Part shown: piece by piece, positions 1 through 54,014 of the stretch
How the letters are laid out: each line of letters begins with the position of its first letter
How positions within the stretch are numbered: the first letter of the stretch is position 1
Source: an uncultured Clostridium sp.
Lineage (GTDB): Bacteria > Bacillota > Clostridia > TANB77 > CAG-508
Length of the DNA: 64,000 nucleotides
Assembly (NCBI GenBank): GCA_964507565.1
Contig: CAZDPV010000002.1
Location: forward strand, 24,879 to 88,878
Direction: 5' to 3'
The notes under the pieces: generated by a model
The model's input: only the letters and a program-made list of their open reading frames with translations
Told to the model about the DNA's origin: nothing
Databases searched by the model: none
Made by a program: the position numbers and the translations under genes

Positions 1-3000
1 AAAAAAGAAATAAACGGATATGCAGAAATAGAATATGAAGATAATGAAATAGTAAATATCTATAATCAAGAAATAACTTATCAAACAATATCTTCAAAAG
101 CATATTTAGAAATTCCAAATGGAATAAAAATAAATTTATCAAATAAAGTTATTAGTCAAAACGGCGAAAATAAAATGAGTTTAAATAATATGGTAATAGA
201 TTCAGAAGATAATGTTACAATAACTGATTTAGAAGAGCTTCAGAAAAAAGAAAATACGATATCTGAAAATTCAACTAATGAAAACAACACATCTTTAGGA
301 ACAGGAAGTGTTACTCAAGGTCCTACAACAGTAATAAATAACCAAACATCAACTTCTATAACAGCAGGGAATGTAGGAGATTCAAAAACAGACTCAGAAG
401 AAACGGTAGATGAAACTAAAACTGTAATTGCTCCAACATATAAAGTAACAAAATTTGAAACAACATCAACTGGAATAAAAGCAACAATTGCGGTAAATGA
501 TGAAGAATCACTACTAACATCAGATAGCAAAATTAAAGTAATAGATGGTGAAACAGGAAAGTTAGTTTATGAAAATACGGAAAGCTTAGGAGTATATAGC
601 ATAGATGTTGACATATCTACACTTTCTCCAAATACAGAGTACACATTAGAAGTTGAATCAAGCTATACTGTTGATTCAATAAGCTATACAAAGAATTTTG
701 TATACAAGGTATTCAAAACTTTACCCATTGGATTAGGAATTACAAAAGATGTTTATACTTCTGATAGCTTAGGAATAAATGTAGTTTTTGAAAGTGAATC
801 AGATGTTAAAGAAGTAGAGGTTGCACTACTTAACAATAAAGGTGAAACAATAAAAACTCAAAAGGTTTATAATAAAGGTAAGACTGAAAACACAAGCAAC
901 GTGGAATTTACACAATTAGAATCAAATACAGAATACACAGTAGAATTACTTAATGCAATATATAATGGACAAGTTATATCAAATGGCTTCGACATAACTA
1001 AAAATTGCAAAACACTAAAGGAAAAACCACAAATTAGTAATCCTGAATTTGAAATAGACAAAAGAAATGGCAAATTTAACCTGGATTTAAAAAACTCAAT
1101 TGACAAAGATAGTGGAATTCAGGAATATAGATTTGAAGTATATGATACAAGACAATCTGCTGCAAAAACACCAATAATGTCATTATCAACAAATGGAACA
1201 CAAACAAGCTTAAAGGTTGATAACGATAAAATATTTAGAAATGTAGCATATATTTTCAAAGTTATTGCAATATTCAATGATAATGAAAAAATCCATGAAT
1301 ACGAAAGCGAATTTAGTGATATTATGCAATTAGATGGAACTGAATTTCCAACAATATCATTCGAAAAGAAAGAGGTTACGTACGAAAGAATCGAAGGGAC
1401 AATAATAGTTGAAGACAAAGGAAACGCAATCAGCCTAAAAAATGGAAATAAATTTACCGTAATCTATAATGACTCGGTTGGAGGAAAAAATGAGTCATTT
1501 ACATCAGAGGGAAGTCTTAAAATTCCAGTATCAGTAAATAATTTAAGAGCAAACGAGACTTACAAATTTTCAGTATATACAACAGTAGATTTACAAGATG
1601 GCAATGATCCAATTAAAGAATGCTTTATAGGTTCAGTAATTGTAAAAACAGAATTACCTAAAAATCTAGTAGCAAATTTTAAAACTAATAAACAAAATAC
1701 AAAAAGCACTTTTGATGTAACGTTTCAACTAGCAAAGGAAAATCAAAGCCAAACTGATTTAGAATCACAGACTCTTACAGGAGTTACATTTAGTATTTAT
1801 CCAGGACAAACAACTGATGGAAAATTGCCAACTGGAACTCCAAAGCGAACTGTTAAGATTGTGGATAGCGATGTTTCAGCATATTCAAGCGAAATAAAAA
1901 CAAATTATTATGACCAAAGTAAATCAATTAATCCAACGTTTTTTGGGTCACAAAACAATGATTTTAAGGACAAATATTATACACTTGTTGTTTCAAAGGC
2001 TTACGACTATACAGATTATCAAAATGCCTTACCAATAATAAATAATGTTTACACAATTGAAACAAATGGATATATGCCTGACCTACCAGGGGACGTTAAT
2101 GATGCACTGCAAGTCAACGTAATTAGAAACAGAGATTCTAGTTCAATAAGAGAAGAATTGGATGCAAGCACAATTGTGGGATATACCGTAAAAGCAAGTT
2201 ATGATAATTCCGATTACTATGCAAAAAAAATAATATATAAAGCGTATAATGCAATATCAAAAGCTTTAATATCAACTAAAGAAGTGAGCATGGACAAAAC
2301 ATTAGAAATTCCTAGTGTAACATTTGATGTAAAAGATGGAATAGATTCAGCTAGTACTGATGATGAAAATCTAACAAGAGGAAATACTTATTACTTTACT
2401 TATGAAGCAGAACTTGACTTAAATGGCGATGGAGAAGCAGAAACTCATTATCCATATAATAGCAACGGACAAGCAGTAACACTTAAATCAAAAGATGTTA
2501 TTCCAGAAAAGCAAGAGGCAAAAATAGAAATGTTTCCAATAATATCAACAAAAAACACATATTCATTTGGAATTAAAATAATAGATATTGACAAATCAAT
2601 AAATACAAATACAGCTAGTGCAAAGATAGATGATAAATTAGTAGATACAGAAGTATTAGACAAGACATCAAATCAATATGGACAAATAACATTTAAAAAC
2701 CTGTCAAAAGGAAATTTGGAAATATATATAACACAAAAAACAATCAATACTGAAGACTCAAAAAAAATATATTTAATTTATCAATACTTTGAAGGAATAA
2801 AAAGCATTAGTGATATTAAGTTTAAAAAGAGCTTAGAATCAAACAAATTACTTATAACATTGATAGATTCTGGAGAACAAATCAACAATATAATAGCGGT
2901 AAAAGTTACTCTTGAATCAACAGATGGAACGGTAAAAATAGAAAAAGATATGTTAAAACCAACAAATAATATTATAAGCATAAATTTAAATGACATTAGT

Positions 3001-4755
3001 GATTTACTCAATAAAGAAACTAAAGTATCAGTAAAAGCTTACTATGATAGTGGAATAACTGGATATAATTTAGAACAAAATCACTTTGTAACATATCAAA
3101 AACCATATCTGTCTGGGGAAACCGTATACTATTATAAGATAGATGGTAAAAAACAATTTGTTGATACTCCAGATATACTAGGAAATATATATATAAGTAC
3201 AAGAACAGAAAACTCTTTGCAAATAGTTAATGCTATGACAACAAGTTTAACAACAACAATAACACTTGATATTACAAAAAACGGATTCACATATAATGGA
3301 AATGTTATTCTACCAAAACAAGTAAATGAGCAGGAAATCGTTTCAGAGGATGGCGATAACATTATTAAATTCGATGTAATAATAACAGGAATAACTCTAA
3401 AAGATAATAAGGGAAATCTAACAATATCATCAGAGCTAGACAACGTTAGTTTTGAAGCATCTCTTTTAACAAAAGAATCTGTTAAGGATGATTTGATATA
3501 TATAGAGATATATCAAACTGACGAAAATGGAAAAACACAATACTTAACTAATACTATTTCAAAGTTAACAAGTGATTTTAACAGTAAAATTACAATAGAT
3601 GGTTTAAAACCAAAAACATATTATTTTCTTAAATTTAGAGCAAATTTTGACACATCAGATGGTGTTTCATCAAAATACTTATATGATATAGATTACGAGG
3701 TAGAGGGGAAGCAATATTATTTTTCAACGCTTGCAAATGTTGGAATAACAAATATAAGTGTAAAATATAATCCAGTTGATTATGATAACAAAACAATTGA
3801 CATAACATACAACCTTGATAAAATAATGGGATATAAGAAGATAGCATATAAGATAGAAAAATATAATGAAGTTACAAAATTATATGAAGAAACAGGAATA
3901 AAAATATCAAACGATGTACTATTTAAAAATGAAATGACTAAAAAAATAGTATGCAACCCAACTGGAGCAGATACAAAAATTATATTCGGAAAAAAATACA
4001 AAATTATAATTGCACCATTAACAGAATATACATATAATGGAACTACTACAACCTTAGATCTAGGCACAAAAGAATATGAATTTGAGCTTCAAGAACTTTC
4101 TAATCCAATTATTGCTTTAAAAGGTTCAAGATCGGGAGAAAGTAGTGCATATTTTAAAGTAACAATATATGATAATGATAAAATAATAGTTGGTGGAAAT
4201 TATTCTGTACAGATTTTTGAAAATGGTTCTATAGATATTACACCAGAGGAGTACGTAAATCAAAAATATTCAATAAATACATTTAATAAAACATTCTCTA
4301 TCTCAAACGTTAATAAAACAAGTAAATATAAAATACTAATAAAATGCAAAATAGATAAAAAGAACAATGGAAATGAAATAACAGACTTTGAAAAAAGTTA
4401 TGAATTACCATCTGTAAATGAATATGGAATTTCAGTAGGAAACGTTTCAACAGCAACAAACTTGAATGGTGGAATTTATAAAATTGATTTAATTTTTAAT
4501 AGTTCATACAAACTAAACGAAATAGACATGGTGAAATATTCAATTTATAATGTAAGCGGATATTCGCAAAGTAATGAGGAAAACTTTATACCAACTGAAA
4601 TAAATTCAGAAGATGGTGGTTTATACTATAAATTTACATTAAATAATAATATGAATGATTGTGATCAGGGAACTTATTATATTGAATTACAATTTTATAA
4701 AGATGGAAATTTAGTTGACGAAACAACAGTTGAACATGTTTATTTAAAAGAATAA
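1..4755 (+). CDS. Giant surface/secreted protein built from tandem FN3/Ig-like beta-sandwich modules (5' end lies outside the window)
   Basis: Frame 1 is open from nt 1, with no stop before the ATG at 175 used by the ORF track, so the gene is truncated by the window edge. It has at least 11 modules of about 90-110 aa, each with an FN3-like strand signature (SPNTEYTLEVES, ESNTEYTVELLN, RANETYKFSVYT, KPKTYYFLKFRA, KTSKYKILIKC). There is no C-terminal TM or LPXTG. The stop is TAA at 4753-4755. Confidence 0.8.
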   Translation, partial: KKEINGYAEIEYEDNEIVNIYNQEITYQTISSKAYLEIPNGIKINLSNKVISQNGENKMSLNNMVIDSEDNVTITDLEELQKKENTISENSTNENNTSLGTGSVTQGPTTVINNQTSTSITAGNVGDSKTDSEETVDETKTVIAPTYKVTKFETTSTGIKATIAVNDEESLLTSDSKIKVIDGETGKLVYENTESLGVYSIDVDISTLSPNTEYTLEVESSYTVDSISYTKNFVYKVFKTLPIGLGITKDVYTSDSLGINVVFESESDVKEVEVALLNNKGETIKTQKVYNKGKTENTSNVEFTQLESNTEYTVELLNAIYNGQVISNGFDITKNCKTLKEKPQISNPEFEIDKRNGKFNLDLKNSIDKDSGIQEYRFEVYDTRQSAAKTPIMSLSTNGTQTSLKVDNDKIFRNVAYIFKVIAIFNDNEKIHEYESEFSDIMQLDGTEFPTISFEKKEVTYERIEGTIIVEDKGNAISLKNGNKFTVIYNDSVGGKNESFTSEGSLKIPVSVNNLRANETYKFSVYTTVDLQDGNDPIKECFIGSVIVKTELPKNLVANFKTNKQNTKSTFDVTFQLAKENQSQTDLESQTLTGVTFSIYPGQTTDGKLPTGTPKRTVKIVDSDVSAYSSEIKTNYYDQSKSINPTFFGSQNNDFKDKYYTLVVSKAYDYTDYQNALPIINNVYTIETNGYMPDLPGDVNDALQVNVIRNRDSSSIREELDASTIVGYTVKASYDNSDYYAKKIIYKAYNAISKALISTKEVSMDKTLEIPSVTFDVKDGIDSASTDDENLTRGNTYYFTYEAELDLNGDGEAETHYPYNSNGQAVTLKSKDVIPEKQEAKIEMFPIISTKNTYSFGIKIIDIDKSINTNTASAKIDDKLVDTEVLDKTSNQYGQITFKNLSKGNLEIYITQKTINTEDSKKIYLIYQYFEGIKSISDIKFKKSLESNKLLITLIDSGEQINNIIAVKVTLESTDGTVKIEKDMLKPTNNIISINLNDISDLLNKETKVSVKAYYDSGITGYNLEQNHFVTYQKPYLSGETVYYYKIDGKKQFVDTPDILGNIYISTRTENSLQIVNAMTTSLTTTITLDITKNGFTYNGNVILPKQVNEQEIVSEDGDNIIKFDVIITGITLKDNKGNLTISSELDNVSFEASLLTKESVKDDLIYIEIYQTDENGKTQYLTNTISKLTSDFNSKITIDGLKPKTYYFLKFRANFDTSDGVSSKYLYDIDYEVEGKQYYFSTLANVGITNISVKYNPVDYDNKTIDITYNLDKIMGYKKIAYKIEKYNEVTKLYEETGIKISNDVLFKNEMTKKIVCNPTGADTKIIFGKKYKIIIAPLTEYTYNGTTTTLDLGTKEYEFELQELSNPIIALKGSRSGESSAYFKVTIYDNDKIIVGGNYSVQIFENGSIDITPEEYVNQKYSINTFNKTFSISNVNKTSKYKILIKCKIDKKNNGNEITDFEKSYELPSVNEYGISVGNVSTATNLNGGIYKIDLIFNSSYKLNEIDMVKYSIYNVSGYSQSNEENFIPTEINSEDGGLYYKFTLNNNMNDCDQGTYYIELQFYKDGNLVDETTVEHVYLKE

Positions 4756-4775
4756 AAATAAATTGGAGGTAAAAG

Positions 4776-6445
<1,670 letters not shown>

Positions 6446-6492
6446 ATAGATAAAATATAAAAAGTCTAATGCTATTTTACAGGAGAAAAAAT

Positions 6493-7320
6493 ATGATAAA
6501 ACTAATTATACCAGCAATAATAATGGAATTCTTAATGTTTGGATTTTCTATATATATTTTTGATAATCTCTCAAAAAGGATAAATAACAGAGTAAAAAAA
6601 TATTTTATAGACAAACTTCAAGATTATAATTATTTAATTGAAGAAAAAGCTAAAGAGCTTGAAAATTTGAGAAATTTGGTAGATAATGAAAATAATAAAA
6701 TAAAAAAACTTCAAGAAACGCCAGAAAGCACATTCTCAAAAACTATAGAGAGCAAGTTAAAGAAAATGAAGAAATTTAAAGAGGGAAAAATCAAACTAGT
6801 AGAAGAAGAAGATATAATTTATGATATACCAACTCCTGCATATAGGGAAGAGTCATTCTTTAAAAATTATAAAGAGCTAAAAAAGAACTTTAACGTGGAT
6901 ACACAAAATGTATTAGAGAAATTTGTTAAGGAACATAAGAATACAAAACAAGAAGATGAAGCATATAAAATTCTTACAGAATTCAGGTCTAAATTTAATC
7001 AAAATACAATTTATGATTGTTTAACATTAAATTCTAATAATCAATACAATTTAATGAAAGAAGTAATGTCCTCAAAAGAAAAAAACACAATTAACTTTGA
7101 GGAAAAATTTATGCAGGACAAGAAATTTACAATATTAAAATTATTAAATTATGTTGACGAGCTGATAAAAAAATACGATCCAACAATATATGTATATGTC
7201 GGATCAGACAGTGTTGATTATAATTATATTGAAAAGAACATCAAGACATATTTTTATAAAAACATGTCCGAAGGAATAATTATAAACTATAAAGGAAAAA
7301 TGTATGACTATAGTATATAG
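6493..7320 (+). CDS. Peripheral-stalk-like protein: b-subunit-like N-terminal TM plus coiled coil, with a delta/OSCP-like C-terminal end (candidate b-delta fusion)
   Basis: I prefer the ATG at 6493, 7 nt after AGGAG (6481-6485); the ORF track starts at 6469 in the same frame. It has one N-terminal TM (IIPAIIMEFLMFGFSIYIF) followed by a long K/E-rich helix. The C-terminus EGIIINYKGKMYDYSI resembles by eye the OSCP/delta C-terminal pattern (GG-x-x-[VI]-x-x-G-x-x-[IV]-x-D-x-S). It occupies the atpF/atpH position between c and alpha. Confidence 0.55.
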   Translation: MIKLIIPAIIMEFLMFGFSIYIFDNLSKRINNRVKKYFIDKLQDYNYLIEEKAKELENLRNLVDNENNKIKKLQETPESTFSKTIESKLKKMKKFKEGKIKLVEEEDIIYDIPTPAYREESFFKNYKELKKNFNVDTQNVLEKFVKEHKNTKQEDEAYKILTEFRSKFNQNTIYDCLTLNSNNQYNLMKEVMSSKEKNTINFEEKFMQDKKFTILKLLNYVDELIKKYDPTIYVYVGSDSVDYNYIEKNIKTYFYKNMSEGIIINYKGKMYDYSI

Positions 7321-7346
7321 AAAATAATTAAGAAAAGGAAGAAAAA

Positions 7347-8685
7347 ATGGGTACACATATTGAGGATTTATTAAATAAAAAAATAGAGCAAATTAAGACA
7401 GAAGAAAATGTTTTTGATTCTGGAAATGTTACAAAAATAAAAGACTATATAATTGAAGTTTCCGGATTGGAAAACGTTAGGTTTTTTGAAAAAGTAATAA
7501 TCCAAGGTAAGGGAATGGGATATGTAAATCAAATAAATGAAAATTCCGTAATAATTGCATTGGTAAAGCAATATGCCCCAATCCAAATTGGAGATATTGT
7601 AAATTCAACAGGAGAATTATTTAAAGCAATATTTGCAAAAGAAGCAATGGGAAGAATAACAGATTTATTTGGCGTCGATTTATTAACAGGAAGAGCTTTT
7701 GAAAACTTTGAATATATAAATATAGAAAACAAAACTACTCCAATAATGGACAGGCGAGAAGTAAACAGACCTCTTAAAACTGGAATATCAGGAATAGACT
7801 TAATATACCCAATAGGAAAAGGACAAAGACAGTTAATAATAGGCGATAAAAAAACTGGAAAAACGCAAATAGCTCTTGACATAATTGCAAATCAAGCAAA
7901 TGTAAGGCGAGAACAAGGAGACAATATAGTTTGCATATACATAGCGGTAGGAAAAACAAAAAAAGAGATTAAGAATATTTATAATGAACTACTTAGAAGA
8001 AATGCATTATCATATACAATGATTTGTGCTGCAACTAATGATGATAAGCCACCTGTATTAAGTCTTATTCCTTATGTAGGATTATCTATTGCAGAAGAAT
8101 ATATGAAAATGAAAAAGGATGTAATTGTAATAATAGATGATTTAAAAAAACATGCACAAGCATATAGAGAGATTAGCTTAATATCGAATAAAACACCAGG
8201 AAGAGACGCATATCCATCTGATATTTTCTATACGCATGCTCGTTTGTTAGAGAAAGGTTGCCAATATAAAGACGGAGGTTCAATTACAATTTTACCTATA
8301 ATGGAAACAAAAGGTGGAGATATAACAGATTATATATCAACCAATATTATTTCAATAACTGATGGACAGCTTGTATTATCAGAAAAAAACTTTAGCGCAG
8401 GATTTAAACCGGCAATTGACTATGGAGTATCAGTATCTAGATTAGGTGGAGCAGTTCAAGAGGAAAGTGTAAAGAAATTAGGAGCAACAGTAAGAAGAAA
8501 ATTCTTAAGCTACTTGGAAATGAAAGAAGTATATGAGCTTGCGAATATGGATGAAATGAGTCCAGAATTAAGACAAAAAATGAAAGAAGGAGAAGCTATA
8601 CAAGAAGCATTAAAACAAGATAAATTTTCTCCTCTGTCAAATGCGGAAATAATTGATAAATTTAATATGTTAGGTGAGGATGCAA

Positions 8686-8696
<11 letters not shown>
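7347..8696 (+). CDS. atpA: F1 ATPase alpha-subunit-like protein (449 aa, short C-terminal domain)
   Basis: Contains RPLKTGISGIDLIYPIGKGQRQLIIGDKKTGKT (alpha Walker A, GD-x-x-TGKT). Also has ITILPIMETKGGDITDYISTNIISITDGQ and FKPAIDYGVSVSRLGG, the region containing the alpha arginine finger. The N-terminal beta-barrel is present. It is about 50 aa shorter than typical alpha subunits of about 500 aa. Confidence 0.9.
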
Positions 8697-10828
<2,132 letters not shown>

Positions 10829-10865
10829 AATATACAAAACAAAATATTATATAGAGGTAAATTAG

Positions 10866-11159
<294 letters not shown>

Positions 11160-11174
11160 AAGAGGAGAGAATTT

Positions 11175-11744
11175 ATGATACAAACAATAATGTATAATGT
11201 TAGTAAAAGTGCAATTCCAATGTTAATATACTTAGGAATAATAGTATTTACTGGATTCCTCATAAATTTCTCAACAAAAAAATTTGATATTCATAAAAAA
11301 ACAGTTATGTTTGGAGGAATGTTAGTTAAACTTCATAGAAGGCAAATAATCTCAATAACTGCAGTTATGATAAGAACATTTCTAATAATATATGCATCTA
11401 TAAACTTTAAAGAAAATTTGGTATTGTACTTTACGATGATTATTATGGCAGATATAGTTTATATTTTTATGAATCCCAAAAAAATAGTATTTGAAATTAT
11501 AAATACTTCTGCACAGGGAATTTTAATATATATAATAAGTCTACTAAGCACATATCGAGTTGAAATTAGTGATGAACTATACGTAAAACTAATGCAAACA
11601 TTGCTTATTATTTTTATAATTGTGTATGCAATATACTTTTTATTTAAAAATTTTGAAGAAATAATATCAAAAAAATATAAAATAACAAAAAGAGAGAAAA
11701 AAGACCAAGAATTGAAGGGAGAATTAAATGAAAAAAATAGCTAA
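11175..11744 (+). CDS. Polytopic (about 5 TM) membrane protein of unknown family; speculative minimal stator or a-subunit substitute
   Basis: GAGGAG RBS. Hydrophobic segments include AIPMLIYLGIIVFTGFLINF, IISITAVMIRTFLIIYASI, LVLYFTMIIMADIVYIFM, AQGILIYIISLLSTY and LMQTLLIIFIIVYAIYFLF. There is a buried Arg in TM2 and an Asp in TM3. IRTFLIIYAS loosely resembles the a-subunit LRLFGNMYAG helix. The C-terminal tail is K/E-rich. Confidence 0.6.
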   Translation: MIQTIMYNVSKSAIPMLIYLGIIVFTGFLINFSTKKFDIHKKTVMFGGMLVKLHRRQIISITAVMIRTFLIIYASINFKENLVLYFTMIIMADIVYIFMNPKKIVFEIINTSAQGILIYIISLLSTYRVEISDELYVKLMQTLLIIFIIVYAIYFLFKNFEEIISKKYKITKREKKDQELKGELNEKNS

Positions 11745-12459
11745 TAAAACATCACAAAATGCTTTAATAAAAGATATTGTCATAAAAATAGTATTAGTAT
11801 TATTACTTCTAGATGTAATATTTATTGCAATATACTATATCAAACAGCTAAATACAACAGAAGTAGAAAATCATAGCTTCTATCAATACTTAGGTGGTCA
11901 AAAGCAAAGTTATGCAGGAAGTATTAAAATAAGCAAAAACGGTGATATAACAGAATTAAAATGTAACGATATTGAAATCGAATTAGACTCAACACCAGTG
12001 TATTATTCAGATATAGAAAATACCGCAATATTACCAGAACAAATGTCAATTATTTATCCAAAAGAAAATGGAAAAACATATAGAACAACAAGATTCTCTA
12101 TATGCTCAATAAAAGACAAATCTGTGTATATTGAAATGAGTAAAAGCGAAAAATTAGTGCAAAATGCAATTCTATATGATGGAGATAATTTGTATTTTTT
12201 TATAGAGCAAACAAAGCTAATGATTGGTAATAAAGAGTATGATATTTCACCATTATCTTATGTATATGCAAAATACAATGAATATGTAGAAATTTATGAT
12301 AAGAAAAGTGATACATTTCAAGTGGTAGAATGTGCAAAAAAGAATGTAACAGCAAGCAATGGCTCATATATAATAGACTTAAACACAGGCAGTTTAAAAA
12401 ATGGAGAAAAAGAACAGCTATTACTTAAAAAGTTTAATTCATTAGAAATTTTAAAATAG
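11728..12459 (+). CDS. Single-pass membrane protein, unknown function
   Basis: ATG follows AAGGGAG and overlaps the previous gene by 17 nt. The N-terminal TM is IVIKIVLVLLLLDVIFIAIYYI, followed by an extracytoplasmic domain of about 200 aa. Confidence 0.6.
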   Translation: MKKIANKTSQNALIKDIVIKIVLVLLLLDVIFIAIYYIKQLNTTEVENHSFYQYLGGQKQSYAGSIKISKNGDITELKCNDIEIELDSTPVYYSDIENTAILPEQMSIIYPKENGKTYRTTRFSICSIKDKSVYIEMSKSEKLVQNAILYDGDNLYFFIEQTKLMIGNKEYDISPLSYVYAKYNEYVEIYDKKSDTFQVVECAKKNVTASNGSYIIDLNTGSLKNGEKEQLLLKKFNSLEILK

Positions 12460-12505
12460 ATTTTAAAAATTGCGTATATGAAATTCTAAATCAGGAGAAC
12501 TAAAA

Positions 12506-15500
12506 ATGAATAAAAATGAAATAAAAGATAAACCAAAATTACATAAAAAAGGTAAAATAGCAAATCTAATAAGAAGCAATATACCAATGTTTCTAATAGT
12601 ATCAATTGGGCTACTAATAATATTATTAGTGGCACTTTATTATATATTTATGCACTTTGCTCCAGTATATGTAATCGAAAAAAGTGGATATGCAGTAAAG
12701 GATAAATTAATATATCAAGGATTACAGACATCAAATTTTAGTAGTGCAGAAAAACGAGTTAGCCTATTAGAAATTTCAGAAGAAGATACTCTATACAAAA
12801 AAATAAACAGTTATTATATTGGTGGAAATAGTAAAAAAGCTATAAACTTAAATTATCCAATATATTTAGAAGATTCAGCAATGCTAAATTTAAGTAAAGA
12901 AATGAATTTGATCACAAATTCTTTTGAAGAGGTAGGAGGATATCCAAATTTTACAATAATAGATGGAAAGATGTATAATGAAAAAGATTTAACAAGAGCA
13001 GATAGCAATGAATACATATTTCTTAAAAATAAAGAGAATTTGTTTGTAAATATTAAAGAAATATATATAAAGACTTCTACAAATGAATATAAAATACCAA
13101 TAAATAGTATTATAAATTTTAACAAAGAATTTGTTAGTTATTATAAATTACAAGACAAAGATAACTTAGAATATAGTGTAATACAAGATATAGACTTAAG
13201 TAGTATAATTACAATAAATAATGAAAGTGATAATTATGAAAATATATTAAAGAAACTTAAAATTATACAAGAAGAAAAGAAACAGGATGTAATTGTAAAT
13301 GAAATAGAAGAACCTGTTAAAAATGAAACACCCAAAAATGAAATAACGGAAAATAAAGAAGAAGAAAAAACGGACGATGAAGAAAAAAAATATATTGCTC
13401 CAGAAGTAAAATGTACAGACTTTACTGCAAATGTTTATACTGCAAAGACGAATTTATATATAAGTGACCCAAGCGGAACGATTCAAAAAGCAGTAGAATT
13501 TACAATATACAAAGATGGTAAGGTATATCAAAGAGCTCAAACTTTAGTAGGAGGAAACATTTTAATAAGTGGACTAATGCCAGATTCAAAATATTCAATA
13601 ACAGGAGAGTACACATACAAAAAAGAATCAGGAGAAAAAGTAATAAAAACATTTTATGAAGGTACGTTTAATACCAATAGATTAGAAACACTAGAAACTA
13701 TAAATTTGGAATTTGAGAATGGAGAAATATTTCCAACAAAGATTGAAATAAAAGATTTAAAAATAAATAATGATTTATATAATGACGAAGTTTTATATGG
13801 AATATCAAAAATAGTATTGGATACAGGAAAATCTAAATATAATTTAAGAGCTTCACAAATAAAAGAACTACTAAATGGAAATAAAATAACATATCAAACC
13901 GACCAAAATATAACAAGTAATAGTAATATAAAATATAAATTCCATATATATGATAAATTTGAAAATGAATTATCAGTCTCAAATAGTGAAGGGGAAACTA
14001 TAACTTCAAAAAGAGCTCCAACTTTAGTATTAAATGCAAAAAGTCAAAATATAACAGAAGTAAATGTAGGAATTAAAGTTAATAACAAGGATAACGTTAT
14101 AATAGAAAACTATAAATATGCTATATACGATGGGGAAGGGAAAGAAGTAGAAAGCCAAAACTTAAAATCATTACCAAGCGAAATTAAGATAAGAGATCTA
14201 GACCCTAATAAATTCTATGTAATAAAAATATTTGGAGATTATGATTTGGAAAACAATCAGGGAAAAACATATAATGTTGAACTGGGGGAAGCAAAATTTA
14301 CGACGTTACCAATATCTTCACTAGGATATGTATACATTGATGATAACTTAAAAGATATAAAAAGTAACCAAACAACAATTTCTATAAAAATAAATACTGA
14401 AAAAACTGATACTAGATTGGTAGAAATATTATCACAATTTAATATAAAAATAAAATCAAACAAAGATAATAAAGATACTCAAGACTATAACTTATCAAAC
14501 GAAGACCTTCTCAAAATAAAGCAGGGAAATGAATTTGAATACATATTCCAAAATCTAAATTCTAACACTAAATATTCTATTGAAGTAGAAACGAGGGCAA
14601 AACAAGGAGCTTCAACGGAAAAAGTAGGTGTAAATTTCGAGATAACGGACTTTATTACACTTAAGGAATCTGCTAGTGTACAAATTAAAAATCAATTTGT
14701 TACAGGAGAAATAATAGATTTTGATGCAAAAATAGTAGATAAAGATGAAGCTGTTTTAAATAATTCTGTACGTATGGAATTAAGGGACGAAATGGATAAG
14801 CTACTATCAATAGAAGATATGAAAACAAATGAAGAATATAAAAGAGAGACATTCAATAAATTGAGTAGTGGAAAAACATATAAAATATTATTTTACGCTG
14901 ATGAGTATAATGAGGGAAGTAAAGATGATACATACAAATCAAACTATCTTCTTAAAAAAATACAAGTTGTTACTGAGGAGGGGATAAGTGGAAATTTAAG
15001 ACTAAGTGAACTTAATAAAAAAGAAAACGGAAAAAATCTAATTGATATGGCTTCAGAAGTAAAATGGTATGTATATCCAAATTTTGACACAGGAGACTGG
15101 TATGGAAAAGAGTATAATGAAGTAACAGAAACATTGTCAATTGGAGGACATGGAAACAGTAGAAGATGTGTATATGACTTAACAGATTATTCAGGACAAA
15201 CTGTAACGATGTCTTTTAAGGCAAAGCGTATTACTAAGAACTCAAGCACTCTATATATTCAAAATGCAAGAACAGATAAAAATAGAACAATAGTTAGTGA
15301 CATAAATGAAACAGAATGGAAAAGTTATTCATATACCATAAAACTTGATGAAAGTGGATACCTTGGCTTTTATGTACAAGGTGGTGATGGAGTTCAAATA
15401 AAAGAATTACAGGTTGAACTGGGATCTAAGCAAACTCCATATCAAAAATATAAATATAATATGAGAACTAGATTACAAGTAAATTTAATTGACAAAAGAA

Positions 15501-18500
15501 ATGAAATAGAGTCGAACGAATATTTCATAAAAGAATATAAAAACAATGAGCTTATTGAAACTAAAAACTTTCAAGAAATAGATGAGAGCAACATAGTAAA
15601 AGATGTAATAAAAGAATTTTGGGTAGATGAAGAAGGAGAATACAAGTTTCAGTTAGTAATAAAGATAAGAAACAGAGAATATATACTAGATACACAAGAA
15701 ATTAAAACTGAAAAAGGAAAAGAAATAAAAGGAATTTATCAATATTCGGATTTTAAGTTGATCCAGCCAAATGGGAACTATACAGTATTTTGTGATTTAG
15801 ATTTTACAGTAGAAAGTAAACAATCATGTTCTTTTGGATATACATGGGACGAAAGATTTTCTTTTAATGGAAGCATAGATTTTAACGGACACAAAATTAT
15901 AAAAGATGCGTATGGAAATAATAGAAGTTGGCCTATATTCCCTAGAATAGGAAAAAACGGATATCTAAAAAATATAGTTATGGATGTAAGCCTAAGAAAT
16001 AATGTAGAAGTAAGAGAATTCTATGGATTATTTTATGTAAACTCTGGAACAATAGAAAATCTAGAAGTTAATTTATTAGAAAGTACAAAATATGGAAATA
16101 TACAAACTCATCTAATAGGTTTAACAAACTATGGAACAATAAATAAATTTGTTATAAATTCAAAGGTACCATACTATGGAAATTGTAGAGTAACACTGGG
16201 ATTGTATAACAATTATGGGACAATTAAAAATGGATACTTATATGGCAGTCCAATTGATGTATTTGGAGATATACCAGAAGAAATTGGATATAGATATGCA
16301 GCTGGACTGGTATTACAATCATATGGAAGTGGACAAATATCAAATGTTTATAGTTTAATAAATGTTAATGTGGAAGACCAAACTACTACTGGAAGAGAAA
16401 ATGTATCTAATATAGTAGAACATAATTACGCACACATAGATAATATTTACTCAGTAGGAACCGGAAATACAATTGAAATGTCACATGGACCATCAGTTGC
16501 ATATAATAATGGAAAAATAAATAATAACTATTACTTTGCAGATAAAGTATTTAATAACTCATATAATAATAAAACTACCAAACTTGCATTATTAGATGAA
16601 CAATTTCAAAATCAAATACTAAATAGTGAAGATGCATTTAATATAGATGATCTTATTTCAAGAGGATATTATCCACAAGTTGTTATGCCAGATTGTATGC
16701 CACGACAGGAATATATCAACCTACCTAAAGTAGATGATGCAGACTTACCAGATATAATTTCAACTAACATAATACAACAAGGCTCAGATACGGTAAAAGT
16801 TAGATTTAGTATAAATAATCCATCTGGAGAAAAAATTCAAAACATAAGTGTACAAAACCTACAAGTAAGAATAGAATCACAAAATTATGCAGATGGAAAA
16901 AGTGAAGTAATAGCAACACTACTAGAACCTACAAAGTATGTATCAACATATAATGTTCTAAGTATAACTACAAAAGGTGCATTCAATATACCATATACTA
17001 GAAAATATGCAAGCAATGAAAGAATAATAAATGTGGATTTATATAGGCAGATAAATTCTATATCAGATTGGAACAATATATCAAACCATACAGATGAAAA
17101 CTTTATGCTACTAACAGATTTAGATTTTAAAAATGAAGGAAGTTCTATATCAATAACTAAAACCTATTATGGAAAATTAGAAGGACAGGGTCACACCATT
17201 AAAAATATAAAGTCAAATAGAGGACTTCTTGCAACATTTACTGGACAAATAAATAATTTATTTATTGAAAATTATTATAATGAATCAGCATCAACAGACT
17301 ATACTGGAGTAATAGAATATTTAAATGGCGGAATAGTAAATAATGTACACATTAAAGGATTAGAGATAGACGTAAATCAAAAAAGAATAGGTGGAACAAT
17401 TACGTGTGGAGGCCTTGTTGGATATACTAATAGTGGCTCAGTAATAAAAAACAGCTCAATTGTAGATGCAACTATTATATCAAATGCAAAACTAGATAAT
17501 GCAAGATTTGGCGGATTAGTAGGATTATCAGACCAACTAGTAATAGATAACTGTTTTGCACAAAATGTAGATATTTCAGCTAATAAAAGTATTTATTATG
17601 AAGGAGTAGGAGGACTAATAGGAAGAGGAACTCCTTGTTACATAACTAATTGCTACTCGACAGGTAAAATTTTTTCAGATGGAGATAGATGTGGAGGAAT
17701 TATCGGAAACAGTAATACAAGCGGAACCCTAACAAATTGCTATAGCTTAGTAAATGTAGATAGTTATGGAGAATATATAGGAGGAATTATTGGATATAAT
17801 CTTACACCAACTTCATGCTTATCTATTGGAAATATTTATACTAGACAAGATACAAAAAACATATCTAGAACATCTGGATATCAAATAAGTAAAAAGATAA
17901 ACTATGCTTATGAGAATCAACTAATAAATGGATATATAAATGAAAATGAATTAGATTCAAATGTACTAAGTAGAGACGAAATATTTAAAAAATCCAATTA
18001 TTTAAGTGAGCTTAAATGGGATGATAATTACAATTATGATGGATTATCTAATTATATACTTCCAAAACTATATTACACAGATAAAAAAGAACTACTACCT
18101 AATCAAGAAGATAATACAATTTCAATAGACAGAGAAATAAAAGTAGAAGAGGTTCAAGCAGAGAAAACAGACGTTAATACTGTTGGTGTAAGAGTTGTAG
18201 TAAATAATCCAGGAAACAAACAAATTAAAAATGTAATAATTGATGACATGAATTCAATAATCTCAAAATCAATTTTTGATAATGGAAAAACTTATATAGA
18301 CTTAGTAACAACGCCTAAAAGATATTATGACAGCTATAAAATCTCAAGCATTGTATATGATGACAATGGAGAAGAAAAATCAAAAGAAACAGAAAATAGA
18401 ATTGATGTTAAATTTTATAAAGAAATATATAACTACAATGACTGGCAATCAATAGAAAAAGATACATTTCAAAATTATAAACTTATGAATGACATTGACT

Positions 18501-21500
18501 TTGAAGGAAAAAGTGAAGTAAATTATAATGTTACAATGGCTAGATTCGAAGCGGTAGGTGATAATAAAACATTAAAAAATATTACATTAGCAGAAATTGA
18601 GCAACAATCTGGACTAATAAACAAAATTTCCATAAATTTAGAAAATATAAATTTCGAAAATATTAACATTACATCTACTAAGTCTGGAAATGCAGTAGGA
18701 ATAATTAGAAAAGCAAGTGGAAATGTAACAAACATCAATTTTAAAGACATAACAATAACCGCAAAAAAAGTTTCTTATGTGGGATGCTTTGCTGTGGTAG
18801 ATTCCGTAACGAAAGATGTTGGACTAGAACACATTACATGCTATGGAATACACTACGTTGGTGGATATGCAGGTTCTGTCTCGAATTTAGGAAAAAATAT
18901 AAATGGAAACAACATCACGATTATTTCAACAGGAAATTATGTCGGTGGAATAGTTGGACTAAATGGTAATGGAATAGAGCCAAATCATTATAACATAAAT
19001 ATAAGTAATTCAAATGTTACAGGATATGATGTTGTTGGTGGACTTGCTGGACAATCTCCTAATATAATGGGTGCGAAAGCTACTTTTGTAACAGTAAATG
19101 GACATAGCAATGTTGGAGGAATGTATGGATATATATATGACTCTTGGGATGGATATAGCAATATTGTAACGGATTCAAATATAGCAGGTTCAGGTTCAAA
19201 TATTGGTGGATTAGCAGGACAATCAACAGACTGGTGGGGAGGAATTAGAACTGTTAAAAACAGTACTGTTACGGGTAAAAATTCAGGATCAAACAACGTG
19301 GGAGGAATCTTTGGATACTCAACAGGAGCATGTAATGCTATGAATACAATAGATGTAACTGTTACAACATTAGGAAGCAATGTAGGTGGAATTATAGGAA
19401 ACTGGAATAGATCGAATTCAACATCTGGATACTGGAGTACAGATAATGTAACGCTAACAGGATATTCAAATGTAGGAGGTTTGGTTGGTTATCATAAAGC
19501 AGGAAGAATAAATTATGCATATAGTAATGCAAAAGTAACAGCAACAGGGTATGCAGCAGGAGGAATATCTGGATATTTGGCCAATACTGGAATGACAGCA
19601 ATAACAAATGATACAGCAATAGTACAAGTTTATGTAGCTAAATCTACTGTAATTGCTCCAATAAATGCAGGAGGAATATTTGGAAAAGTTGAAACAGACT
19701 TTTATATGCCAGTATCTTTATATACTAAAATATTTGTAGAAGCCAACGTAAAATCAAATTATGACACGACATCTTCAATGATTGTGGGTTCAGACAAGAC
19801 AATGAATAGTCAATTATCAAAAATATACATCTACCAATACAGCAAGATAAATGAAAATTACATTACAAAATATAACGACAATATAGAAGCAAATAATTTC
19901 TTAAATGAAAGTAATTTAAAGCTAGCAAAAACATATTCTTCAACACTAGGATTTAATACAGGGGTATTTAATACGAATATGTTATCAAGTAATATTTATC
20001 CAACAATAAAATATGGTAGAGATGGAAATACAATGGAGCAAAGAGGAATTTCATTGCCAATGGATCCAGTAGACGTAGTTATAAATTTAGAAGAAATACA
20101 AACAATGGATTTGAAAGAAGATGAATATCCACTTATGGTAGCATCTAATTTCTTAATTAACTTAAATACTGAAAACGACCAAAAAGTGAATAACTTACCA
20201 ACGTATAGTGCATATCCAATAAGTGTAAATGAGTTTAATATAGATTTTAGTAAAATAGACGAAAATGCTTTCTTTGAATGCTATGTAAATGGTAGAAGTG
20301 CTGTAAAACAATATATAAAAAATAAAACATATACATTTAAATATGACTTTAAAACTAATATTGAAATCAATATAGGAAAAGATGATGTGGTAAAAACATT
20401 AACAATTATACCAAGTGATATAAATAAACGAACAAGTTTAAAGGGAGAAAGCATTGCATATATAAATGAAAATAAATTATATGTAAATAATGAGGAAAAA
20501 AGTGAACAATCTGTAAACTTATATGATTCCCAAGCTTTAACGAACAATGGAAAGATATACAACATATTAACTGGTGAGTATACAAATAGCAATGAAAAAA
20601 CAAATACTACAAGCATAGATGAAGAGAGCCAAAACAATAATGTTCAAAACACATTAGCATTAGAAGAAACTAAAGCGTTAGAAAAATACCAATATGATGG
20701 AAATAATATTGAAAGCTTTGGAACGTACAGCATAGTAAATGGCAATAGAAAGTCACAAATTTATATAGTAAAAAACAACAAGTTATCAGTGATAGATAGC
20801 TCATTAGATATCAAAATTTCAAACCAAGTAATTGATTTCTACAATGGAAAAGAATATCAATCAGTACTAAAAAAAGATGGAAAGATAAACAATTTAAAAG
20901 AAAGTCTAAAATATCCTAAAAATTTTAATAATAGTACAATAAAAGAAATAACAATGAATCAAGAAGAAGAAAGAAAAGAAGTAATGGTACTATATGAAAA
21001 CGGAAAGGTCATAGTATTCAATTACATGGATGGAAATGAAAAATACAATAATAATGTGAAAGAAGAAGTAAGTTTATTAGACTTTTTAAAAGAAAATTTG
21101 TTTAATGCAAATATGATATATGAAGACTTATCAGAAGAATATGAACAATGCAAACAAGTACAAGAAAAGCTAGAAGAAACTCCAATAAGTGAGCTAAACA
21201 TAAATTCGAGTTCAAATAATAGTTCATCTAATGCAACATCAAGTGGATCAAACAATAATAAAACAAATAAATACACTACAATGTACAATGCAACAAGCAA
21301 AAAATATGAAGTATATAATGAAAATGAACTATTAACAAGCAAAGAAGAGGTACCAGAATCAGAAACTACTAAGATTGAAAAAACAGAATTATTATCTAAA
21401 TATTATCTAAGTGGAATAAAAGAAAAATCAAATTCTAATAAAAATAATGGTACGGTTTGGATAATATCAACAATAATTGGAATTTTAATAATTCTCATAA

Positions 21501-21562
21501 TATTATACAAAGTAAACAACAGAAAAAGAATAGCAATTAAAAAAAATACAAATAAAAAATAA
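12506..21562 (+). CDS. Giant (3018 aa) envelope protein with TM helices at both termini, FN3-like repeats, a CBM-like jelly-roll and GLUG-motif beta-helix arrays
   Basis: CAGGAG RBS. N-terminal TM (IPMFLIVSIGLLIILLVALYYIF, about nt 12584-12652). FN3-like signatures include MPDSKYSITGEY, LDPNKFYVIKIFGDY, LNSNTKYSIEVETRA and SSGKTYKILFYA. A CBM-like segment spans about 15060-15450. F-x-G-x-(L/F)-x-G-x-G-H-x-I-x-N modules are present (FNGSIDFNGHKIIKD, YYGKLEGQGHTIKNI). About 10 consecutive x-V-G-G-(L/I)-x-G repeats span about 18850-19690. An S/N-rich linker precedes the C-terminal TM VWIISTIIGILIILIILY (21455-21508), which is followed by a basic tail. There is no LPXTG and no HEXXH. Confidence 0.85.
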   Translation: MNKNEIKDKPKLHKKGKIANLIRSNIPMFLIVSIGLLIILLVALYYIFMHFAPVYVIEKSGYAVKDKLIYQGLQTSNFSSAEKRVSLLEISEEDTLYKKINSYYIGGNSKKAINLNYPIYLEDSAMLNLSKEMNLITNSFEEVGGYPNFTIIDGKMYNEKDLTRADSNEYIFLKNKENLFVNIKEIYIKTSTNEYKIPINSIINFNKEFVSYYKLQDKDNLEYSVIQDIDLSSIITINNESDNYENILKKLKIIQEEKKQDVIVNEIEEPVKNETPKNEITENKEEEKTDDEEKKYIAPEVKCTDFTANVYTAKTNLYISDPSGTIQKAVEFTIYKDGKVYQRAQTLVGGNILISGLMPDSKYSITGEYTYKKESGEKVIKTFYEGTFNTNRLETLETINLEFENGEIFPTKIEIKDLKINNDLYNDEVLYGISKIVLDTGKSKYNLRASQIKELLNGNKITYQTDQNITSNSNIKYKFHIYDKFENELSVSNSEGETITSKRAPTLVLNAKSQNITEVNVGIKVNNKDNVIIENYKYAIYDGEGKEVESQNLKSLPSEIKIRDLDPNKFYVIKIFGDYDLENNQGKTYNVELGEAKFTTLPISSLGYVYIDDNLKDIKSNQTTISIKINTEKTDTRLVEILSQFNIKIKSNKDNKDTQDYNLSNEDLLKIKQGNEFEYIFQNLNSNTKYSIEVETRAKQGASTEKVGVNFEITDFITLKESASVQIKNQFVTGEIIDFDAKIVDKDEAVLNNSVRMELRDEMDKLLSIEDMKTNEEYKRETFNKLSSGKTYKILFYADEYNEGSKDDTYKSNYLLKKIQVVTEEGISGNLRLSELNKKENGKNLIDMASEVKWYVYPNFDTGDWYGKEYNEVTETLSIGGHGNSRRCVYDLTDYSGQTVTMSFKAKRITKNSSTLYIQNARTDKNRTIVSDINETEWKSYSYTIKLDESGYLGFYVQGGDGVQIKELQVELGSKQTPYQKYKYNMRTRLQVNLIDKRNEIESNEYFIKEYKNNELIETKNFQEIDESNIVKDVIKEFWVDEEGEYKFQLVIKIRNREYILDTQEIKTEKGKEIKGIYQYSDFKLIQPNGNYTVFCDLDFTVESKQSCSFGYTWDERFSFNGSIDFNGHKIIKDAYGNNRSWPIFPRIGKNGYLKNIVMDVSLRNNVEVREFYGLFYVNSGTIENLEVNLLESTKYGNIQTHLIGLTNYGTINKFVINSKVPYYGNCRVTLGLYNNYGTIKNGYLYGSPIDVFGDIPEEIGYRYAAGLVLQSYGSGQISNVYSLINVNVEDQTTTGRENVSNIVEHNYAHIDNIYSVGTGNTIEMSHGPSVAYNNGKINNNYYFADKVFNNSYNNKTTKLALLDEQFQNQILNSEDAFNIDDLISRGYYPQVVMPDCMPRQEYINLPKVDDADLPDIISTNIIQQGSDTVKVRFSINNPSGEKIQNISVQNLQVRIESQNYADGKSEVIATLLEPTKYVSTYNVLSITTKGAFNIPYTRKYASNERIINVDLYRQINSISDWNNISNHTDENFMLLTDLDFKNEGSSISITKTYYGKLEGQGHTIKNIKSNRGLLATFTGQINNLFIENYYNESASTDYTGVIEYLNGGIVNNVHIKGLEIDVNQKRIGGTITCGGLVGYTNSGSVIKNSSIVDATIISNAKLDNARFGGLVGLSDQLVIDNCFAQNVDISANKSIYYEGVGGLIGRGTPCYITNCYSTGKIFSDGDRCGGIIGNSNTSGTLTNCYSLVNVDSYGEYIGGIIGYNLTPTSCLSIGNIYTRQDTKNISRTSGYQISKKINYAYENQLINGYINENELDSNVLSRDEIFKKSNYLSELKWDDNYNYDGLSNYILPKLYYTDKKELLPNQEDNTISIDREIKVEEVQAEKTDVNTVGVRVVVNNPGNKQIKNVIIDDMNSIISKSIFDNGKTYIDLVTTPKRYYDSYKISSIVYDDNGEEKSKETENRIDVKFYKEIYNYNDWQSIEKDTFQNYKLMNDIDFEGKSEVNYNVTMARFEAVGDNKTLKNITLAEIEQQSGLINKISINLENINFENINITSTKSGNAVGIIRKASGNVTNINFKDITITAKKVSYVGCFAVVDSVTKDVGLEHITCYGIHYVGGYAGSVSNLGKNINGNNITIISTGNYVGGIVGLNGNGIEPNHYNINISNSNVTGYDVVGGLAGQSPNIMGAKATFVTVNGHSNVGGMYGYIYDSWDGYSNIVTDSNIAGSGSNIGGLAGQSTDWWGGIRTVKNSTVTGKNSGSNNVGGIFGYSTGACNAMNTIDVTVTTLGSNVGGIIGNWNRSNSTSGYWSTDNVTLTGYSNVGGLVGYHKAGRINYAYSNAKVTATGYAAGGISGYLANTGMTAITNDTAIVQVYVAKSTVIAPINAGGIFGKVETDFYMPVSLYTKIFVEANVKSNYDTTSSMIVGSDKTMNSQLSKIYIYQYSKINENYITKYNDNIEANNFLNESNLKLAKTYSSTLGFNTGVFNTNMLSSNIYPTIKYGRDGNTMEQRGISLPMDPVDVVINLEEIQTMDLKEDEYPLMVASNFLINLNTENDQKVNNLPTYSAYPISVNEFNIDFSKIDENAFFECYVNGRSAVKQYIKNKTYTFKYDFKTNIEINIGKDDVVKTLTIIPSDINKRTSLKGESIAYINENKLYVNNEEKSEQSVNLYDSQALTNNGKIYNILTGEYTNSNEKTNTTSIDEESQNNNVQNTLALEETKALEKYQYDGNNIESFGTYSIVNGNRKSQIYIVKNNKLSVIDSSLDIKISNQVIDFYNGKEYQSVLKKDGKINNLKESLKYPKNFNNSTIKEITMNQEEERKEVMVLYENGKVIVFNYMDGNEKYNNNVKEEVSLLDFLKENLFNANMIYEDLSEEYEQCKQVQEKLEETPISELNINSSSNNSSSNATSSGSNNNKTNKYTTMYNATSKKYEVYNENELLTSKEEVPESETTKIEKTELLSKYYLSGIKEKSNSNKNNGTVWIISTIIGILIILIILYKVNNRKRIAIKKNTNKK

Positions 21563-21579
21563 AGAATATATAAAAAACG

Positions 21580-21608
21580 TTGACATAAGCAACAAAAAAA
21601 TGTATAAT
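21580..21608 (+). promoter_or_regulatory. Sigma-A type promoter of the thrS leader
   Basis: TTGACA (21580-21585), a 17-nt spacer, then TATAAT (21603-21608). This is the first clear promoter after the long upstream gene array. Confidence 0.65.
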
Positions 21609-21614
21609 AAAAAT

Positions 21615-21856
21615 AGTTTAAGAAAGCTAATGGAAGGAAAAGTAAAGTAAAAGTTACTTATAAGAGAAAATTAGTCGTGGGCTGAAAGCTAATTTAAGCA
21701 AACATACTTGAAAAACTACCTTCAAAAAGTGCTAGTGAGTAAGCTAGACGTTTAAGCTACGTTATAAGCTATAAAAATAAGTGAAAAATCCGGGTGGAAC
21801 CGTACTAAATAAAGTACCCCAGAACATATCTTTTTAGATATGTTCTGTTTTTTATT
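21615..21856 (+). promoter_or_regulatory. T-box riboswitch leader (threonine specifier) with terminator/antiterminator
   Basis: Stem I elements are present (AGAGA box in taagagaaaa; gggctgaaag GNUGA-like). The specifier region gaaaaACUACCuuc contains Thr codons ACU/ACC. A T-box sequence aatccGGGTGGaACCGtac lies at about 21788-21806. An intrinsic terminator follows: agaacatatc (21821-21830) pairs with gatatgttct (21837-21846), then a T-run. Confidence 0.8.
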
Positions 21857-21898
21857 TTATAAAGACTATCTAGATTTGTAAGAAGAAAGGAAAATATT

Positions 21899-38997: not shown

Positions 38998-39190
38998 AAA
39001 GTGAATTCATTCCTGCCTGGTTCGTGCAAATTAGGATTTTAGAACCAACAAATAGATTAAAGGGAGTCCGCCTTTGAATGTGGCGTGTATGCTTAACATA
39101 ACGTTATGAAACCCAGAAGCATTCGACAAGACACCCACCTGTGTAAACAGGCTCTTAAAATTCTTAATTAACGGCCGAGGCGGGCCTTTT
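38998..39190 (+). ncRNA. ssrS: 6S RNA (RNA-polymerase-binding regulatory RNA); ends uncertain by about 10 nt
   Basis: A GC-rich island of about 190 nt in AT-rich DNA with no ORF. cctgcctggttcgt (39012-39025) pairs with acggccgaggcggg (39171-39184). aattaggattttagaacc pairs with ggctcttaaaattcttaatt, giving the long irregular helix. The central region TTTGAATGTGGCGTGTATGCT ... CAGAAGCATTCGACAAGACACCCACCT resembles, from memory, the conserved bubble-flanking sequence of E. coli 6S (GAAUGUGGCG ... GAGAAGCC...CGACGACACAUUCACCU) and B. subtilis 6S-1. It ends in a T9 run (39187-39195). Confidence 0.7.
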
Positions 39191-53820: not shown

Positions 53821-53826
53821 TTTAAT

Positions 53827-53904: not shown

Positions 53905-54014
53905 TTTTTTTATTAGAGATAATAAAGATGGTGACTTTTGTTATATTACTAAGAAATATAAATTCTTGTTATTTAAGTAATATAAAATTAAATAAACTTT
54001 CAATTAAGCAAAAC

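Follow-up and report, generated by a model that had tools for sequence, protein, structure and literature searches.

Why should a gene set for an F-type ATPase lie in one array with genes for giant cell-surface proteins? The question was raised by a 64,000-nucleotide (nt) stretch of DNA, here called the window, from an uncultured Clostridium sp. of the TANB77/CAG-508 lineage (GenBank assembly GCA_964507565.1, contig CAZDPV010000002.1, positions 24,879 to 88,878 of the forward strand). Eleven tightly packed open reading frames (ORFs), all in one direction (+ strand), run up to nt 21562 of the window and encode, in order, a giant surface protein (G1), a 468-amino acid (aa) protein, a c-like proteolipid, a stalk-like protein, alpha-, gamma- and beta-like subunits, a small protein in the position of epsilon, a protein with four or five transmembrane (TM) segments, a 243-aa protein and a second giant (G2). 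The original prediction, made from the letters of the window alone, had listed these eleven ORFs and all ten of their junction lengths, and both were found as listed. Comparative sequence evidence suggests that the locus is probably one conserved operon, uniting an F-type-derived ATPase with the surface proteins that it serves; recurrence in 80 further genomes puts the arrangement far outside what chance would produce.

The junctions, in array order, measure 20, 14, 23 or 47, 26, –11, –8, 37, 15, –17 and 46 nt, the third depending on the start chosen for the stalk gene and the –11 assuming a gamma start at 8686, which is where gene callers placed it on the organism's own contigs. The window's first frame is open from nt 1, with no stop before nt 175, and the organism's own contig (L085) places the start of the G1 gene some 530 nt ahead of the window; 258 nt separate it from the upstream pgi, and an extended –10 promoter-like site precedes it. 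The original prediction saw no hairpin plus T-run inside the array; this stands for the junctions, none of which contains a terminator-like site, but one such site, the only one within the array, lies about 100 nt inside the G2 gene (12610-12633), an AT-rich hairpin with a T-rich tail that is weak and within chance expectation. A promoter scan was uninformative at 27% GC (138 sites vs 128 expected). The TTGACA-17-TATAAT site at 21580 (21580-21608), put forward earlier as the first clear promoter, is real and drives the T-box leader of thrS, so that it belongs to thrS. The leader itself gave a full-length match at 21621-21824 (55.9 bits, E 1e-11) that did not reach 93, the Rfam gathering score. 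Just before thrS a terminator hairpin stands at 21820-21847 (region 21580-21899); this AT-rich T-box is overlooked by the curated threshold.

The catalytic genes are those of an F1 ATPase: alpha-like (7347..8696; PF00006, E 5.5e-71) and beta-like (9470..10828; PF00006, E 7.9e-69) subunits, as for an alpha3beta3 assembly, together with a gamma-like central shaft of 263 aa (8686..9477, with an alternative GTG start at 8674; PF00231, E 1.3e-27). Aligned to their E. coli counterparts, alpha was 34% identical, with GDKKTGKT (Walker A) and SVSRLGG (Arg finger) conserved, and beta 40% identical, with Walker B and DELSEQD conserved; across the pair the catalytic motifs (Walker A and B, catalytic Glu, Arg finger) were intact, and by sequence alpha and beta should still form a working ATPase. 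The N-terminal helix of alpha, where canonical delta binds, is kept, and some 55-70 C-terminal residues are missing. Tested with NCBIfam equivalog models, alpha failed TIGR00962 (399.8 vs a cutoff of 484), gamma failed TIGR01146 (67 vs 194) and the c-like protein fell under every c cutoff (35.7 vs 71), beta alone passing, and narrowly (TIGR01039, 476.9 vs 462.85). The bit scores of beta were about 390 (387-395) with canonical bacterial subunits in the PDB, about 370-380 with mitochondrial ones and 326 with the G1-beta of Mycoplasma mobile. A search of 1.84 billion cluster representatives resolved the beta family into four full-length clusters at 59-74% identity, then, after a clear gap, everything else at no more than 49%; in a neighbour-joining (NJ) tree the family was monophyletic in 89 of 100 bootstraps. 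Long low-complexity C-terminal tails, rich in Pro/Thr/Glu/Lys or acidic, occur on alpha in some relatives and on beta in others (among them L069:3660-7910, L016:6681-9218 and P0114, a beta of 702 aa); the L069 alpha has 1416 aa, of which the tail makes up about 970, and several beta homologues are 547-773 aa long.

The membrane sector is not that of an ordinary ATP synthase. The c-like protein (6197..6445; PF00137, E 4.8e-8) is a two-helix hairpin whose sequence is almost invariant among 68 orthologues, and in the alignment not one of the 68 had Asp or Glu inside TM2; the equivalent of E. coli D61 is T54 or A60, and the only acidic residues lie beside the cytoplasmic RNPE loop, which is strongly conserved. 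No ORF of the locus matched subunit a (ATP-synt_A). Judged from these comparisons, the array fails both defining features of an ion-translocating F1Fo.

For several of the remaining genes family-level searches were of little help: no meaningful match among PDB sequences came from profiles of the stalk, epsilon-like, 4-5-TM and 243-aa families, hhalign comparison with E. coli delta, epsilon and a and with small canonical delta/epsilon profiles (L087, L091, L094) aligned the expected motifs at no significance, Pfam scans of all family members found no OSCP, ATP-synt_B, ATP-synt_A or ATP-synt_I, and a homologue search with a concatenated epsilon-like plus 4-5-TM query returned the query itself only. 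For the stalk gene (6469..7320, giving 283 aa, or from the likely start at 6493, giving 275 aa), sequence-level tests against known families (Pfam, NCBIfam, PDB profiles, hhalign) were negative or marginal. An AlphaFold2 model of its product built with 61 homologues (predicted local distance difference test, pLDDT, 82.5) shows a TM helix leading into a helix of about 70 residues, a linker, and a helical domain with a four-stranded sheet. The best 31 Foldseek matches of this model in the PDB were all ATP synthase delta/OSCP (probability up to 0.97, E about 0.013), including the mycobacterial b-delta fusion 7njn_d; with moderate confidence, and at the level of the predicted fold, we regard the protein as a fused b-delta-like peripheral stalk.

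After beta in 80 of the 81 loci of our survey (below) lies the gene for a small protein, of 97 aa and predicted to be all-beta in the window (10866..11159). Its motif LLIMxDYxPxIGEIxG aligns, not significantly, to canonical GILPGHAPLLT, PF02823 was matched by one of 45 members (E 0.004), and a single-sequence AlphaFold2 model was unusable (pLDDT 43). The short epsilon of the original prediction keeps its position after beta, its size and its motif in its favor, and has no significant similarity by hhalign, Pfam or AlphaFold2 to go with them; the protein is probably the N-terminal domain of epsilon without the C-terminal helices, whose absence was judged by length. Next comes the 4-5-TM protein (11175..11744, 189 aa), recognized by its hydrophobic segments, and an ORF of 164-213 aa with four to six TM segments lay directly 3' of the epsilon-position gene in 73 of the 73 loci with room for one. 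The protein belongs to the universal core of the array and is a candidate for the stator partner in the membrane. We rejected its identification as a divergent a subunit or AtpI, since the family has no conserved Arg and none of its 45 members matched ATP-synt_A or ATP-synt_I; nor was there any PDB match or similarity to E. coli a.

The four other proteins of the array are predicted to be anchored at the surface. G1 is partial in the window (1..4755); the full gene (L085 4716-9980) encodes 1754 aa with an N-terminal TM anchor at residues 6-24. G2 (12506..21562, 3018 aa) is anchored at both ends (TM residues 26-44 and 2982-3000), as are the complete orthologues in L020 and L030. Two smaller bitopic proteins accompany them, the 468-aa protein (4776..6182), with TM residues 12-30 followed by an ectodomain, and the 243-aa protein (11728..12459), with TM residues 17-35. 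The FN3 domains read into G1 and the 468-aa protein by the original prediction give weak signals in the window (E 3.5e-4 and 0.059), but the G1 orthologue of L007 passes the Pfam FN3 cutoff; G2 bears GLUG motifs (E 2.5e-8), and BLASTP self-comparison found no internal repeats in either giant. BLASTP aligned the two giants over about 1000 aa (E 5.6e-17), which makes them paralogues. By hhalign the 243-aa protein matched the N-terminus of G2 at E 4.6e-7 and that of G1 at E 5.8e-6; the 468-aa protein matched the N-terminal region of G1 (E 2.7e-9), as compared with 0.003-0.011 for unrelated controls. On these profile matches, a homologous base module, namely a TM anchor followed by some 200 aa of ectodomain, is common to G1, G2 and the 243-aa protein, the last of which would be the module alone; the 468-aa protein likewise shares a domain with G1. 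The machine would thus bring several copies of this module, which in two cases has grown into a giant. The 468-aa protein belongs to no Pfam or NCBIfam family and the 243-aa protein has no Pfam or PDB match; they were present in 54 and 66 of the 81 loci, respectively. We found no names for the array proteins in public annotation or in the sources consulted.

A motif (D/E/S)GY(I/V) occurs a few residues past the N-terminal TM of both G1 and G2, and a related ESGTFIY in the 468-aa protein; such anchor-proximal sites lie at 4776-4900 and 12506-12700 in the window, at L085:4716-4850, and in L020, L030 and other loci. This post-TM motif of the surface proteins may be a docking or recognition element.

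Is the association of ATPase and giants a property of the family or an accident of one contig? We scanned one genome per species, which returned 80 loci, or 81 with the window. Carriers, as labelled, were uncultured Clostridia, Bacilli, Mycoplasmatota/Tenericutes, Erysipelotrichaceae and Lachnospiraceae, with locus GC from 22 to 59%, over which range beta remained 61-78% identical. Linkage was scored in the 46 loci with 3 kb or more of sequence on each flank, and any neighbouring ORF of 900 aa or longer in the same direction counted as a giant. An adjacent giant was found in 39 of the 46 (on both sides in 24, on neither in 7), and a downstream one, in the G2 position, in 37 of 63 testable loci; median junctions across loci were –20 to 25 nt. 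Mapping with phmmer distinguished four arrangements. A is the order of the window; B runs G1, 468-aa, 243-aa, c, stalk, alpha, beta, epsilon-like, 4-5-TM, gamma; and C, seen in L021 and L034, begins c, G1, 468-aa, stalk, alpha, so that, with the c gene upstream of G1, the G1 and 468-aa genes are embedded between ATPase genes. Linkage to the giants in relatives was one of the tests on which the original prediction had staked itself in advance, and the linked and embedded loci together bear it out. The fourth arrangement, D, is taken up below.

Some features of individual loci deserve mention. The gene directly 3' of gamma in arrangements B and D encodes a cytoplasmic protein, probably a coiled coil, of either about 285 aa or about 615-640 aa (L053:12912-14795, L071:12942-14789, L036:12875-13741, L044:12886-13734); the two size classes are separate sequence families, and neither was detected in arrangement A. 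Two metagenome-assembled genomes (MAGs) hold two copies of the module each, L023 plus L077 in JAHABX01 and L047 plus L052 in JAWXVA01, every copy with its own downstream giant, and L023, L047 and L077 with an upstream giant too (L052 is cut at its upstream end); unless binning has misled us, these are paralogous machines in one genome. The MAGs of six loci (L020, L030, L049, L062, L067 and L079) bear the names Muribaculaceae, Ignavibacteriales or Alistipes communis; these loci are more likely mis-binned contigs than real transfers.

The carriers overlap with lineages in which rotary ATPases have been reported missing. For a set to count as complete in the ProAD census, alpha, beta, gamma, a and c all had to be present, dispersed clusters being combined where possible; the census placed o__TANB77, f__CAG-508 and f__UBA660 among gut lineages apparently without rotary ATPases; it also recorded 20 F/N-type sets whose c lacks the carboxylate. 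The GTDB genus CAG-914 falls in RF39/UBA660, and our L053 is labelled Clostridium sp. CAG:914. The census and the loss of the c carboxylate together make it unlikely that the cluster is the only ATPase of its genome, served by an ordinary atpB elsewhere; for at least some carriers the census also speaks indirectly against any atpB serving the cluster.

Which known machine does the array most resemble? The original prediction had proposed analogy, or evolutionary relationship, with the extra F1-like ATPases of mycoplasmas. The genetic association of a non-canonical ATPase with surface proteins, a trait of mycoplasma Types 2 and 3, is indeed present in the array family; a specific phylogenetic link is not supported, the sister group of the beta family being Type-3-like in 27% and Type 2 in 0% of bootstraps, nor was homology detected among the accessory proteins, all families of which, compared by hhalign with their Type 2 and Type-3-like counterparts, gave E of at least 0.009, equal to controls. 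We infer that the array ATPase may be functionally analogous to the Type 2 and Type 3 enzymes, with a distinct architecture. The NCBIfam models for MSC_0618, MSC_0619, MMOB1660 and MMOB1670 all failed (412 vs 570, 302 vs 520, 380 vs 600 and 387 vs 850), the two MSC models scoring below canonical ones. The Type 2 'G1-ATPase' (MMOB1610-1670) drives gliding of M. mobile with Gli123, Gli349 and Gli521, and is thought to pass force through the membrane to these giant surface proteins (PMC11864180, PMC12994834). The array is like it in its F1-derived alpha, beta, gamma and perhaps epsilon, in a probable use other than ion transport and in the absence of an a subunit from the locus. Type 2 itself, however, has no c, b or delta, its beta carries an N-terminal dimerization domain and its gene order is another one, whereas the array keeps a c-like ring protein and a b-delta stalk and has its giants in the same operon as the ATPase, which is not so in M. 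mobile; a specific sister relation of beta to Type 2 was rejected, with none of 100 NJ bootstraps. The Type 3 'F1-like X0' ATPase is closer in genetic setting, an atypical F-type ATPase in an operon with the MIB-MIP surface proteins; its action on these proteins is required, and its Walker A lysine is essential. Here too c, b and delta are missing, as is the N-terminal helix of alpha (PMC12994834; mycoplasma F1-like ATPases are treated further in PMC3369863). In contrast, c-like protein, b-delta and alpha N-terminal helix are all present in the array, which encodes no MIB, MIP or 12-TM protein, and the affinity of the betas amounts to a weak hint (27 of 100 bootstraps).

To canonical F1Fo the array is similar in gene order (c, b/delta, alpha, gamma, beta, epsilon), catalytic motifs, gamma shaft and the RxPE-loop c hairpin, with the mycobacterial enzyme (7njn_d) as precedent for a b-delta fusion; it differs in having no a in the locus, no c carboxylate, a truncated alpha, a short epsilon-position protein and giants around it. 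N-ATPases are likewise a second, divergent F-type lineage, sometimes with fused b-delta (ProAD), but they keep a, a Na+/H+-binding c and AtpQ/AtpR, in the order atpDCQRBEFAG; this difference in order and the failure of TIGR03305 (425 vs 752) and TIGR03324 (356 vs 750) led us to reject N-ATPase identity. Among machines with other tasks, FliI-FliJ-FliH offers an F1 relative with stalk-like partners that serves the envelope in a way other than ion pumping. An export ATPase is nonetheless a homohexamer without a c-ring, whereas the array has separate alpha-type and beta-type genes; given these two distinct genes and FliI/SctN scores of 157-231 bits, below those models' own cutoffs and far from the roughly 400-477 of F1 models, identity with a flagellar or type III secretion export ATPase was rejected. 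GldLM of Bacteroidetes, a rotary membrane motor that moves the giant adhesin SprB, is an analogy only: it shares the pairing of rotary motor and giant adhesins, and differs in being driven by proton motive force, in its unrelated proteins and in its Gram-negative envelope.

What, then, might the array do? It has rotor-like parts (gamma, the epsilon-position protein, the c-like protein) and stator-like parts (alpha, beta, b-delta), and no ion route was seen in the locus. On the strength of gene content and conservation we favor, with somewhat better than even confidence, an ion-uncoupled F-type-derived ATPase that acts on membrane-anchored surface proteins encoded with it in one conserved operon. 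Beta would hydrolyse ATP and thereby turn gamma, the epsilon-like protein and the c-ring against a stator of alpha3beta3 and b-delta; with both a central and a peripheral stalk present, relative rotation is a better reading than a static anchor. Since the ring seems unable to carry ions, torque or conformational work would be passed within the membrane to the 4-5-TM protein and to the anchors and base modules of the surface proteins. Work taken up there would give the giant ectodomains a different position, tension or conformation; they may in this way be moved, tensioned or reset, whether for adhesion cycling, for surface translocation or gliding, or for ligand release.

Several points weigh against such a surface-acting machine. 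Action on surface proteins, rotation and ATPase activity are all things that we infer; the assignment of epsilon, made from position, size and motif, lacks statistical support; in arrangement D (7 of the 46 testable loci) the ATPase core stands without a giant within 7-8 kb; the ProAD link is a correspondence of names for one locus; and the N-termini of the giants are ordinary and signal-anchor-like, so that a special machine for their export is not strictly needed. A rival reading is that the array encodes a dedicated export, insertion or assembly ATPase for G1 and G2, comparable to FliI-FliJ-FliH, that does not act on the finished proteins. Strict linkage of the ATPase genes to very large secreted or anchored proteins, and the loss of ion coupling, would both be expected of it. 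Yet the full set of rotor and stator parts has been kept where export ATPases are homohexamers, and FliI/SctN scores stay far below those of F1; the N-terminal signal-anchor helices of the giants fit Sec and the signal recognition particle; and the locus has no polytopic protein resembling an export gate, the sole polytopic one having four or five TM segments. We thus consider an export role unlikely.

That the array could instead be a divergent housekeeping F1Fo ATPase or synthase, with a encoded elsewhere and the giants as unrelated neighbors, is suggested by its canonical gene order, by a beta just over the TIGR01039 cutoff and by the seven loci without adjacent giants; but a c-ring in which 68 of 68 proteins lack the carboxylate, equivalog scores under the cutoffs for alpha, gamma and c, a beta that no other beta cluster matches at more than 49% identity, giants linked in 39 of 46 loci and embedded among ATPase genes in L021 and L034, and the finding by ProAD of no complete alpha-beta-gamma-a-c set in TANB77, CAG-508 or UBA660 even with separate loci combined make this highly improbable. 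Less credible still is a decaying remnant of an ATP synthase with no present function. Many carriers do belong to gut lineages with reduced genomes, and a and the c carboxylate have been lost and the C-terminus of alpha truncated; against decay, however, the ORFs are intact in 80 species, beta holds 61-78% identity despite the spread of GC from 22 to 59%, identities that point to dN/dS well below 1 across the family, the c-like protein is near-invariant, the catalytic motifs are intact, and single MAGs carry two full copies (L023/L077 and L047/L052).

Elsewhere in the window, a complete gene for SpoIVA (27444-28925, – strand) has three Pfam domains, the ATPase domain at E 5e-113, and speaks for an endospore-forming organism. 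A second class II aminoacyl-tRNA synthetase-like gene (23932-25134) is followed by a 732-aa ORF with a TTG start and no Pfam match (25113-27311), and there are a 6S RNA gene at 39007-39190 (90.7 bits) and a cluster of three tRNA genes at 53745-54087.

We found no description of this cluster in the literature searched. Repurposed F-type ATPases that serve surface proteins are known, and sequence comparison supports the array family as an unreported form of them; if the surface-acting reading is true, the principle of the repurposed F1-like ATPase extends to spore-forming Clostridia and many uncultured gut Firmicutes. We put forward more tentatively, with slightly more doubt than belief, that this is a fourth kind of F-type machine, in which a carboxylate-free c-ring serves as a membrane torque transmitter driving paralogous anchored giants of 1750 and 3000 aa, and that it is widespread in abundant, uncultured gut Firmicutes otherwise apparently without a rotary ATPase; its range would take in TANB77/CAG-508-like Clostridia, RF39/UBA660 Bacilli and some Lachnospiraceae-like MAGs. 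Such a machine could fill the evolutionary gap between F1Fo and the mycoplasma F1-like X0 motors as an intermediate, with a lost and c and b-delta kept, and, because the c-ring and peripheral stalk have been kept, rotation and an ion-free exit of torque are directly testable in it.

Since the array's beta passes the atpD cutoff, annotation pipelines probably label it as ordinary ATP synthase, which would inflate the bioenergetic capacity inferred in MAG studies. The array would also explain the alpha and beta genes of lineages catalogued as having no rotary ATPase (TANB77, CAG-508 and UBA660). TANB77 has been linked to immunotherapy response (PMC11680825), and for prevalent bacteria of the human and animal gut the array points to an adhesion, motility or surface-remodelling apparatus.

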